Part shown: positions 56,776 through 59,103 of the stretch, piece after piece
Position numbering within the stretch: the stretch's first letter is position 1
How the letters are laid out: each line of letters starts with the position of its first letter
IMG/VR virus record: IMGVR_UViG_3300005581_000001
Location: 1 to 64,000 of that record
DNA from: a virus
DNA length: 64,000 nucleotides
Direction: 5' to 3' (one strand)
Notes under the pieces: generated by a model
Databases searched by the model: none
The model's input: the letters and a program-made list of their open reading frames with translations, nothing else
What the model was told of the DNA's origin: nothing
Translations under genes and position numbers: made by a program

Positions 56776-56937
56776 TTATTTTTTTATTTCTTTTGGTACT
56801 TTAACTAAAATATTTCCGTTTGGCTTTTTAAATATAGCCATAGGCACACCAGTAGTTTTTACTTGATCAGCTAATCCTTTAGCAACTTCGCGAAAATCTA
56901 CTTCGTCTTCATACTCCATTATGATTTTTCTATTCAT
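56776..56937 (-). CDS. Small hypothetical protein (53 aa, not in ORF track)
   Basis: Manual translation MNRKIIMEYEDEVDFREVAKGLADQVKTTGVPMAIFKKPNGNILVKVPKEIKK; tightly packed with its neighbour. Confidence 0.6.
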   Translation of the reverse strand: MNRKIIMEYEDEVDFREVAKGLADQVKTTGVPMAIFKKPNGNILVKVPKEIKK

Positions 56938-56939
56938 TA

Positions 56940-57086
56940 TTATTTCTTTAAATTAGTGATTCTAACCACAACAGAATCCTCGCCTTCACTTTCAATAAAT
57001 CCAGCTTCTGCAGGAATATTTACAATTTCAGTCATAAATTCTTTGTAATCCTCTTCTTTTTCAAAAGTCCAAATTATTTTTTTCAT
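56940..57086 (-). CDS. Small hypothetical protein (48 aa, not in ORF track)
   Basis: Manual translation MKKIIWTFEKEEDYKEFMTEIVNIPAEAGFIESEGEDSVVVRITNLKK. Confidence 0.6.
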   Translation of the reverse strand: MKKIIWTFEKEEDYKEFMTEIVNIPAEAGFIESEGEDSVVVRITNLKK

Positions 57087-57089
57087 TTA

Positions 57090-57287
57090 TTATTTATTTA
57101 AATTTCCTCTATTAAACAAAACTTCATTATCCATTTTTTTATAAAAATTAACAACTATATTATTAACTTTTTTTTGACATTTATCACAATACAATTGTTC
57201 TACTTTTTCACCAGTAGCTATTATTGTTCTACATTCATTACATAATGTAGCCCCGTTACCATTATTAAATTTATAAACTACATTCAT
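57090..57287 (-). CDS. Small zinc-finger-like protein
   Basis: CNEC...CDKC; start taken at ATG 57287, which overlaps the upstream TGA (ATGA). Confidence 0.6.
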   Translation of the reverse strand: MNVVYKFNNGNGATLCNECRTIIATGEKVEQLYCDKCQKKVNNIVVNFYKKMDNEVLFNRGNLNK

Positions 57288-57490
57288 AATTTTTCTATTT
57301 CTTGTTTTACTTCTTGCCAATATTCATAAAATTTTAAGCTTTGAACTAAATGTTTTCTTCTTGAATTTAAAATCTCATCAACTGCTATTAATGCACATTG
57401 TTTTGCTTGTTTTACAGTAAACATTGGTATTATATTATCTACTAACCAATATTTATCTAAAATTTCGTTTGCTTTTTCTTTTGGTGTCAT
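57284..57490 (-). CDS. Hypothetical phage protein
   Basis: MTPKEKA...AKQCALIAVDEI...YWQEVKQEIEKL, a pattern familiar from Bacteroidota phages. Confidence 0.65.
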   Translation of the reverse strand: MTPKEKANEILDKYWLVDNIIPMFTVKQAKQCALIAVDEILNSRRKHLVQSLKFYEYWQEVKQEIEKL

Positions 57491-57523
57491 AATTCAAATA
57501 TATTTCCATTACTTGTTAATTTT

Positions 57524-58015
57524 TTATTCATTGTGTTCTTTTATATACTTTATTACATTATTTAATATAAATATATTTTCAAAACTCATACCAAGTACAG
57601 AGTTACATTGACCACATATTAATTTTCTTACTGAATTAGTTTTATGATTATGATCCACAACTAATCCATTAAAACAATCATCACTATGTTTTTCACATAT
57701 ATAACACTTATTATCTTGTTTTAATAACATGTTATTGTAATCTTCTATAGAAATATTATAAGATCTTTTTAAATTATAATTTGTATATCTTTTTTTGTTT
57801 TTTAAATATTCTCTTTTTTTTATTTCTTGTATTTTTTCTTTATTATTTTTCTTATATTCGTTGTTTATTTTCATAAAACAAGTTTTACATCTTGATTGAT
57901 AATAATTTTTTAATACATTTCTTTTATAAAAATTATCTATACTTAATTCTAATCCACATTTATTACACTTTTTTACTAAATTTTCTTTTGTATTATTACA
58001 CATATATTTTATCAT
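57524..58015 (-). mobile_element. Endonuclease VII-type (His-Me) putative homing endonuclease
   Basis: CNKC/CKTC N-terminal zinc finger; QDNKCYIC...VDHNHKTNSVRKLICGQCN. Confidence 0.85.
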
Positions 58016-58026
58016 TTTAATATATG

Positions 58027-58034
58027 CAAATATA
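58027..58034 (-). promoter_or_regulatory. -7 promoter element for the endonuclease
   Basis: TATATTTG on the - strand in the 46-nt gap, TTAGG upstream. Confidence 0.6.
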
Positions 58035-58061
58035 CAAAAAATAAATGGTAAAACCTAATTT

Positions 58062-58763
58062 TTATTGATATATTTTTACGTTTTTATCATTTATTTCAAA
58101 AATATTTCCATTTGAATATAGTTTTCCAAACCTCCCGTCTTTAACTACACTTCCATTTGAAAAATAAATATCATTTTGATATAAAATTCCATTATTTTGA
58201 ATATCTTCATTTGAATGGATGTGACCAAAGCAAACTAATTGTGGTTTAACTCTATTTAACATATGATTTCTAAGGCTTTTACAGCCACAAAATTCTAATT
58301 TTCCATCTCTATCATAAGATAAGTCTAATATTCCTTTAGGAGGGCCGTGAGACACTACTATGTCTATCCAATCAGGAATAGATGAATATAGTTTATCCAT
58401 CTTACTTCTATCTTTCATAAACCACCAATTTCCAAAATTTGGACTGATTGGACTTCCCCATATTGATACACCATCAACAAGTGTCCAATCGTCTTCTAAG
58501 TATATAATATTTAAATCTTTACAAATTTTATTAACTTCTTTTTTATTGTGATACACAAAAGAGCTGTGATTTCCAGCTACAAAAACTTTATTTTTAATTG
58601 GCAGACAAGCAAACCAGTTTATAAAATCTCTAAACTCAGGTTCATTATTATATTGATCCTTAGAATTAGATTCGTCACCACTATGAATGACGATATCTAT
58701 TTCTTCAGGAATATTTAATAATCCGTGATAACTATGGGTGTCCGAAAGGTGCCATATCTTCAT
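58062..58763 (-). CDS. Calcineurin-like metallophosphoesterase
   Basis: SDTH, HSGD, AGNH, SHGPP and FGHIH motifs. Confidence 0.9.
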   Translation of the reverse strand: MKIWHLSDTHSYHGLLNIPEEIDIVIHSGDESNSKDQYNNEPEFRDFINWFACLPIKNKVFVAGNHSSFVYHNKKEVNKICKDLNIIYLEDDWTLVDGVSIWGSPISPNFGNWWFMKDRSKMDKLYSSIPDWIDIVVSHGPPKGILDLSYDRDGKLEFCGCKSLRNHMLNRVKPQLVCFGHIHSNEDIQNNGILYQNDIYFSNGSVVKDGRFGKLYSNGNIFEINDKNVKIYQ

Positions 58764-59103
58764 TGTCGAAATTATTTTCTTTAATTTGTATTCTATCTAT
58801 AAGACTCGCTTTTTCTAACATAAGGTAAATGATTAAATCATTATATTTTTCTTCAATCATTGCCTTAGACGGTAATTTACCTTCTGCTCTTAAATCAGTT
58901 TTTATATCTTGTATAGATATATAATGTTTCATTGCAAATCCCCACAATACATCTTCTCTAAGTTGCCCTGTGACTTTAGAACCCTCTTCAAAATTATGAA
59001 AAGGATTGCTAAATCTTCTATATTCCTTGCCTTTTATTACAAGAATATTTCTAATGTTGTCAAGGGTTTTTTCTACAACCCAATCAAAATTTTTTTCTGT
59101 CAT
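58732..59103 (-). CDS. All-alpha MazG-like / nucleotide-modification-associated domain protein
   Basis: KGKEY...NF...KH...EKYNDLIIY pattern. Confidence 0.45.
   Translation of the reverse strand: MTEKNFDWVVEKTLDNIRNILVIKGKEYRRFSNPFHNFEEGSKVTGQLREDVLWGFAMKHYISIQDIKTDLRAEGKLPSKAMIEEKYNDLIIYLMLEKASLIDRIQIKENNFDNEDMAPFGHP

Follow-up and report, generated by a model that had tools for sequence, protein, structure and literature searches.

A putative free-standing homing endonuclease cassette of the gene-end replacement type in the metallophosphoesterase gene of Flavobacteriia phages

In fungal mitochondria, gene hybrids termed 'mORF' have been described for atp6 of Allomyces macrogynus, for atp6, atp9, cox2 and nad3 of Glomus, for atp9 of Rhizopus and for cox2 of Mortierella (PMC3630166). 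Insertions in phage T4 lie between genes or split a gene into two polypeptides, as in nrdA, gene 60 and gene 43, according to a T4 review (PMC2988022). Cyanophage S-PM2 encodes F-CphI, a representative of the 'DHHRN' homing endonuclease family that carries the catalytic motif of Endo VII (PMC6083498). A full-text literature search, with most subscription journals outside its scope, returned no published description of gene-end replacement by an endonuclease in phages, nor did term searches within the T4 review and within a paper on nuclease genes at the boundaries of genetic exchange (PMC10448857). Here we describe a phage locus at which, as judged from comparative sequence analysis, a cassette with a free-standing homing endonuclease gene has very probably replaced the end of its target gene.

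The window analysed, 64,000 nucleotides of IMG/VR record IMGVR_UViG_3300005581_000001, contains on its minus strand a calcineurin-like metallophosphoesterase (MPE) gene of 233 codons at 58763-58062 (Pfam Metallophos, E = 4e-14). Its product ends in GRFG, the motif KLYSNGNIFEI (58124-58092, hereafter the working copy) and a nine-residue tail, NDKNVKIYQ, which together with the stop codon occupies 58062-58091 and is absent from canonical MPE genes. A spacer of 46 bp (58016-58061, minus strand) separates the tail from a free-standing nuclease gene of 163 codons (57524-58015, minus strand; PF02945, E = 2.9e-19, residues 81-159). Directly 3' of the nuclease stop, the same strand reads KLTSNGNIFEL (57522-57490) followed by its own TGA (57489-57487); we refer to this segment, 57487-57522, as the stranded copy or remnant. 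Its TGA overlaps the ATG (57490-57488) of the downstream 68-aa ORF that begins MTPKEKA (57284-57490, minus strand). Re-reading the sequence reproduced the coordinates and translations of both copies and the ATGA overlap exactly as a preliminary description of the locus had given them.

The two copies are identical at 9/11 residues and 24/33 bases, and the serine codon is wholly different (TCA in the working copy vs AGT in the stranded one); because it differs at all three positions, the likeness lies at the protein level and does not reflect a fresh duplication of DNA. We built a scoring matrix from 83 canonical MPE C-termini and, across all six reading frames of the window, applied it to each of the 56,606 12-mers free of stop codons. 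The highest scores were those of the working copy (32.7 bits) and the stranded copy (27.7 bits), with the next-best 12-mer at -2.6 bits. The match between the two copies is not due to chance. Only the stranded copy is followed immediately by a stop codon, as in canonical genes.

Two further observations concern this end of the locus. A mini-ORF of 14 codons (MNKKLTSNGNIFEL and stop; 57531-57487, minus strand) starts at an ATG at 57531, which precedes the nuclease stop by 5 nt, and extends to the ATGA. It covers the remnant and, as a speculation, could hand ribosomes to the downstream gene; equally speculative is the idea that the intact frame and stop of the remnant may serve translational coupling to that gene. 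Further along, the overlap of the 68-aa ORF with the following ORF (MNVVYKFNNGNG...; 57283-57326, about 44 nt) was found on many different contigs in 4/4 metagenomes, with unlike sequence continuing on either side and with a depth that exceeded the surroundings by a factor of up to six. This has the appearance of a module boundary that is conserved in many phages.

The nuclease carries an Endonuclease VII-type domain (HNH superfamily) at its C-terminus behind a Cys-rich N-terminus, and the residues CYIC...DHNH...R...CGQCN are intact when the ORF is read against the description of the F-CphI family (PMC6083498). In a search of 5.8 billion proteins, it had almost no close relatives, its best matches being 39% and 34% identical. 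The spacer upstream of the gene contains TATATTTG (58034-58027), which matches TAnnTTTG, the Bacteroidota -7 box; it is the sole TAnnTTTG within 60 nt upstream of minus-strand ORFs of at least 80 aa in the window. A sigma-70 promoter scan gave fewer sites than shuffled sequence does, and the pattern TTG-N19-TAnnTTTG had no match at the nuclease gene. Since both scans were negative, it is the -7-like box that carries the proposal of a promoter belonging to the nuclease gene itself, and that earlier proposal goes as far as this consensus match and no further.

The stranded copy had been proposed to be the original end of the MPE gene, and the homologues agree with this assignment. MPE stops exactly at ...SNGN(I/V)(F/L)E(I/L) in 83 of the best 120 homologues; the stranded piece stops at this canonical place, while the working gene runs nine codons further. 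Synteny on both sides of the gene is shared with the IMG/VR contig L006, which lacks the nuclease. Its MPE ends ...GILTSNGNIFEI and stop (LTSNGNIFEI), ATGA-coupled to the MTPKEKA... ORF, which is the arrangement predicted earlier for a nuclease-free relative; two copies of the motif in such a relative had been named as evidence to the contrary, and L006 has a single end. By blastn, window 59800-58092 corresponds to L006 2959-4678 and window 57520-57075 to L006 4648-5095. As these L006 ranges overlap, one and the same 31-bp stretch matches both window copies. The stranded copy differs from the L006 end at 4/36 bases and the working copy at 10/33. Both its canonical-end score and its alignment to the single L006 end thus mark 57487-57522 as the old gene end.

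The locus is polymorphic for the presence of the cassette. In a sediment metagenome (X3), a contig of 1,255 nt, about 96% identical in the aligned pieces through which it is known, joins 58215 to 57522 and therefore lacks the cassette, providing a same-species control. In contigs from two other metagenomes (X2 and X4), the sequence continues through both the nuclease and the remnant with no difference from the window. Empty alleles are thus found in L006, the X3 contig and the cultured Flavobacterium phage elemoA_15-9B, and occupied ones in X2, X4 and its sister isolate elemoA_7-9A. Two relatives deviate in the MPE reading frame itself. In the empty relative L005 (3909-4657), the MPE frame is interrupted between about 4001 and 4322 in the ORF listing. 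In L007 (691-1278 and 3047-3676), it breaks off after ...LDLSYDRS, at about residue 180 of a 195-aa ORF; the genes that follow are encoded on the other strand, with a GIY-YIG-type ORF in the vicinity. The break in L007 may stem from a rearrangement or from another mobile-element event in the MPE gene.

The two elemoA isolates allow the occupied and the empty state to be compared in nearly identical genomes. In elemoA_7-9A, the MPE ends ...KLTSNGNIFEINSERTINIQHIKDN and stop, followed by a nuclease gene with NUMOD4 and HNH_3 domains and then by KLSSNGNIFEI and stop, which is ATGA-coupled to the next gene. In elemoA_15-9B, the MPE ends GRFGKLSSNGNIFEI and stop and is coupled to that same next gene. 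Bases 1-450 of the two MPE genes are 100% identical, and from base 451 to the end identity falls to about 55%. There are 5 differences in the 2,476 bp upstream, identity in the flanks is 99.6-99.8%, and the first 220 bases from the remnant onward are the same in both phages. The stranded piece in elemoA_7-9A equals the end of the empty allele. The cassette was present in one elemo isolate only (2 records at 99% identity or above, both of 7-9A), as compared with 72 Flavobacterium phage records that contain the MPE, and among phage records the HNH gene was likewise confined to 7-9A. As a separate observation on this pair (L001 4457-4514 vs L035), a group of nine mismatches is found where the next gene ends, 221-278 nt downstream of the remnant; they may represent a second, separate conversion patch or strain variation.

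In the window, the working end of the MPE gene is of foreign origin. At the DNA level, 58330-58241 is 88% identical to L006 and 57% to L039, a phage contig with a LAGLIDADG nuclease at the same place; across 58240-58088, identity to L006 is 59%, whereas that to L039, L014 and L041, which represent the LAGLIDADG cassettes, is 89.5%. The breakpoint lies near 58240, at about KPQL/VCFGHIH. The protein comparison gave the same picture. The N-terminal part is 86-89% identical to the homologues P0002-P0006; P0002 matches the window MPE at 89% in its N-terminal part and at only 62% in its C-terminal part, while L039 matches at only 47% and at 84%, respectively. Because the N- and C-terminal identities switch partners, the gene is a hybrid. 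Its resident 5' part (codons 1 to about 174; 58241-58763, minus strand) is defined by the Pfam match and by identity to L006 and P0002-P0006, and its putatively co-converted 3' coding part, from about VCFGHIH to ...KLYSNGNIFEI (58092-58240, minus strand), by identity to the MPE ends of the LAGLIDADG cassettes.

The foreign sequence extends beyond the motif. Homologues of the tail NDKNVKIYQ are IDDNQNVKIY, present in L014, L016 and L039, and the tails of P0012 and P0013; tail and spacer are about 72% identical to L039, the spacer also to L014 and L016. Homology to L039 ends where the nuclease ORF begins, and the nuclease has no DNA homology to the LAGLIDADG genes in the same slot. The alignments therefore support an imported piece that comprises about 150 bp of coding 3' end (about 50 codons), the tail and the spacer, all from another MPE lineage. 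A recoded 3' end had indeed been postulated for the mobile unit; a foreign end is present, but it is larger than the 11 recoded codons. A hybrid MPE of this kind is, on the evidence of these identities, the signature expected of co-conversion when a break is repaired from a donor. A third mosaic is P0001, 92% identical to P0005 in its N-terminal part and 96% to P0022 in its C-terminal part.

This mosaic pattern bears on the origin of the repeated motif. Formally, the layout is a 33-bp imperfect direct repeat around an insert, as would arise if the gene's own end had been duplicated in tandem and had diverged, with a nuclease gene inserting later and independently. Against this, the working copy together with the 150 bp upstream is 89% identical to another MPE lineage and 59% to the nearest relative, and it is the stranded copy that resembles the relatives. 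In elemoA, too, the stranded copy is the sister isolate's end and the working end is about 55% identical to it. Local duplication is contradicted by the mosaic pattern as read from these alignments, and we consider it extremely improbable.

The same frame, consisting of a foreign tailed end, a nuclease slot and 11 stranded codons, recurs in three phage contigs from metagenomes, where its occupant is a LAGLIDADG nuclease. In L014, L016 (the same contig as L037) and L039, the MPE ends ...KLYSNGNIFEIDDNQNVKIY and stop, then comes the LAGLIDADG gene (Pfam LAGLIDADG_3, E about 3e-9; families LAGLIDADG_3/_1) and then K(T/N)(L/I)TSNGNILEI and stop. The occupants of the slot thus belong to three families classically tied to homing endonucleases, namely Endonuclease_7, NUMOD4 with HNH_3, and LAGLIDADG. 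Of the patterns used to find such alleles, the DNA pattern for NGNIFEI[ND] mostly matched an unrelated protein family and was useful only for L014 and L016, and a scan of genome contigs with the tailed-type pattern gave chance matches only.

Some of these alleles deviate from the complete arrangement. In L016 (7100-7190, minus strand), the ATG with which the LAGLIDADG gene starts in L039 and L014 is replaced by ATA, and a one-base deletion follows a few codons later; the nuclease gene of L016/L037 is probably decaying, to judge from these lesions. L041 (6461-6680) has a tailed MPE end (IDENQNVKIYGNIKLV and stop) but neither nuclease nor remnant, and most of the next gene is missing as well; the tailed end runs into the last codons of a gene that is 372 aa long in L016. 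L041 has apparently arisen from an occupied allele by deletion. The damaged nuclease start in L016/L037 and the loss of nuclease and remnant in L041 represent stages of decay.

Nucleases of these families are often intron-encoded, and the downstream copy keeps both frame and stop codon, as would be expected of a real last exon behind a self-splicing intron or intein-like element that made up the segment between the copies. The composition of the insert speaks against this: outside the nuclease ORF it has only 46 non-coding bases, and a scan of 56900-58900 against Rfam, with E values up to 10, gave no match to any family, intron RNAs and ribozyme cores included. In L039, the remnant even forms the in-frame end of the LAGLIDADG ORF and provides its stop codon. 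Moreover, splicing would duplicate nothing useful, since the upstream frame already has the complete motif, the tail and a stop. An intron or intein is thus most improbable, and the nuclease was not classed as a group I intron-encoded endonuclease, given the absence of a ribozyme core by Rfam and the 46 non-coding bases.

The boundaries of the insert point to a putative target. The serine codon of SNGN is TCA or TCT (TCN) in the working end of every occupied allele, and it is AGT in 11/11 empty alleles and in 5/5 stranded copies; as the working ends share ancestry, this association does not stem from independent events and is suggestive only. Whichever of the three nuclease types is present, the insert ends on its right side immediately ahead of the K-L codons, the same within a few bases. 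From these boundaries we infer a target spanning TTTGG/AAATTA...AGT, which would be recoded in the working copy and would lack its left half in the stranded copy.

Ordinary homologous recombination between co-infecting phages at conserved MPE blocks, with the nucleases as passengers or late arrivals in a non-essential gap, might also join a foreign gene end to a resident gene. The breakpoints do coincide with conserved motifs (HGPP, and immediately ahead of GHIH), at which recombination of any kind would be resolved, and L041 kept a tailed end without a nuclease; phage nuclease genes are known at the boundaries of genetic exchange (PMC10448857). Against this, the nuclease lies exactly between tail and remnant in 6/7 readable tailed records (the seven records being five distinct occupied alleles and L041, with L016 and L037 the same contig), and the right boundary holds within a few bases for three unrelated nucleases. 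The single elemo isolate with a cassette, set against 72 MPE records and with flanks otherwise identical, fits a recent nuclease-linked event. Because of the position of the nuclease in 6/7 records and the shared boundaries, passive recombination is disfavoured, and we regard it as unlikely. Replacement of the gene end by a homing cassette, as advanced in the preliminary description, is supported by the empty alleles, the mosaic MPE, the elemoA pair and the lack of an intron family match.

We propose the following route for such a replacement. The donor phage would carry, in this order, the 3' part of an MPE of another lineage with its short extra tail and TCN serine codon, the spacer, the nuclease gene and the 11-codon canonical remnant. 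In a mixed infection, the nuclease would cut the nuclease-free allele near the FG/KL codons, a stretch that is highly conserved at the DNA level in AT-rich phages of Flavobacteriia. The break would be repaired from the donor, the resected left end copying the donor's gene end, tail and nuclease gene over a presumed co-conversion tract of about 150 bp in the window and about 290 bp in elemoA_7-9A. The right end would anneal through the 33-bp remnant, which would account for the remnant in elemoA_7-9A being the recipient's own sequence. The predicted outcome is an intact hybrid enzyme gene that requires no splicing, with the nuclease gene behind it; the recipient's last 11 codons and stop would be left untranslated, the stop still being coupled to the start of the next gene, and neither copy would keep the whole target. 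Both the target site and the repair route are deduced from the boundaries and should be regarded as a working model.

As both homology arms lie inside the MPE gene, differences in the neighbouring genes need not prevent transfer of the cassette from one phage to another, and the genes downstream of MPE do vary between L002, L003, L006, the elemo phages and L016. The phages that share the frame include an Elemovirus podophage of about 60 kb and a phage known from contigs of 95-98 kb. Since the left arm and the remnant are common to unrelated nuclease genes, it would be the nuclease gene that is exchanged within the frame. We tentatively consider a further possibility, for which the case is at present the weaker one: the tailed foreign end and the 33-bp remnant might constitute a long-lived, portable 'landing pad' in which unrelated nucleases (Endonuclease VII-type, HNH_3 and LAGLIDADG) interchange. 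Having both arms within the target gene would let it jump between unrelated phage genomes, and the remnant would be kept in frame with its stop because this preserves the translational coupling downstream.

A selfish nuclease that enters the coding end of a phage gene needs neither splicing nor the splitting of a protein, a solution documented before in fungal mitochondria. Such events would account for phage genes with mosaic 3' ends and for orphan gene tails in 'intergenic' DNA, features that automated annotation would overlook. The use of one slot by three nuclease families bears on the mutual replacement of homing endonucleases. In addition, elemoA_7-9A and elemoA_15-9B (on Flavobacterium sp. 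strain BAL314) form a cultured near-isogenic pair in which homing, the cut site and competitive advantage can be addressed.

Among described systems, T4-like phages provide the free-standing Seg and Mob homing endonucleases (PMC2988022, PMC2790892). Their genes lie between or beside other genes, their presence varies among relatives and flanking sequence is co-converted, all of which is also seen or suggested here; gene-end replacement with a stranded duplicate, however, is not described in the T4 review (PMC2988022). At the sequence level, the present locus combines the hallmarks of intronless homing, that is, a homing-endonuclease family, polymorphism at the locus and co-conversion of flanks. 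F-CphI, compared by description, resembles the window nuclease in its C-terminal Endo VII-type domain, its CX2C...DH(D/N)H...R...CX2C-N residues and its free-standing location in a phage, but it targets the psbA intron-insertion site, while the target of the window nuclease is deduced from the boundaries (PMC6083498). The closest likeness is to the fungal mitochondrial mORF hybrids, whose citation as a precedent was well founded: they consist of a foreign in-frame C-terminal piece, an endonuclease ORF and then a duplicate of the native C-terminus (PMC3630166), and of the two copies it is the native duplicate that resembles the relatives more, as in the window and in elemoA. They differ in that the host here is a tailed phage of Flavobacteriia and not an organelle, that the stranded piece measures only 11 codons with its stop still overlapping the start of the next gene, and that three nuclease families occur in one slot. 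What is added here to these systems is the three-nuclease slot, the quantified co-conversion tracts and the cultured near-isogenic pair.
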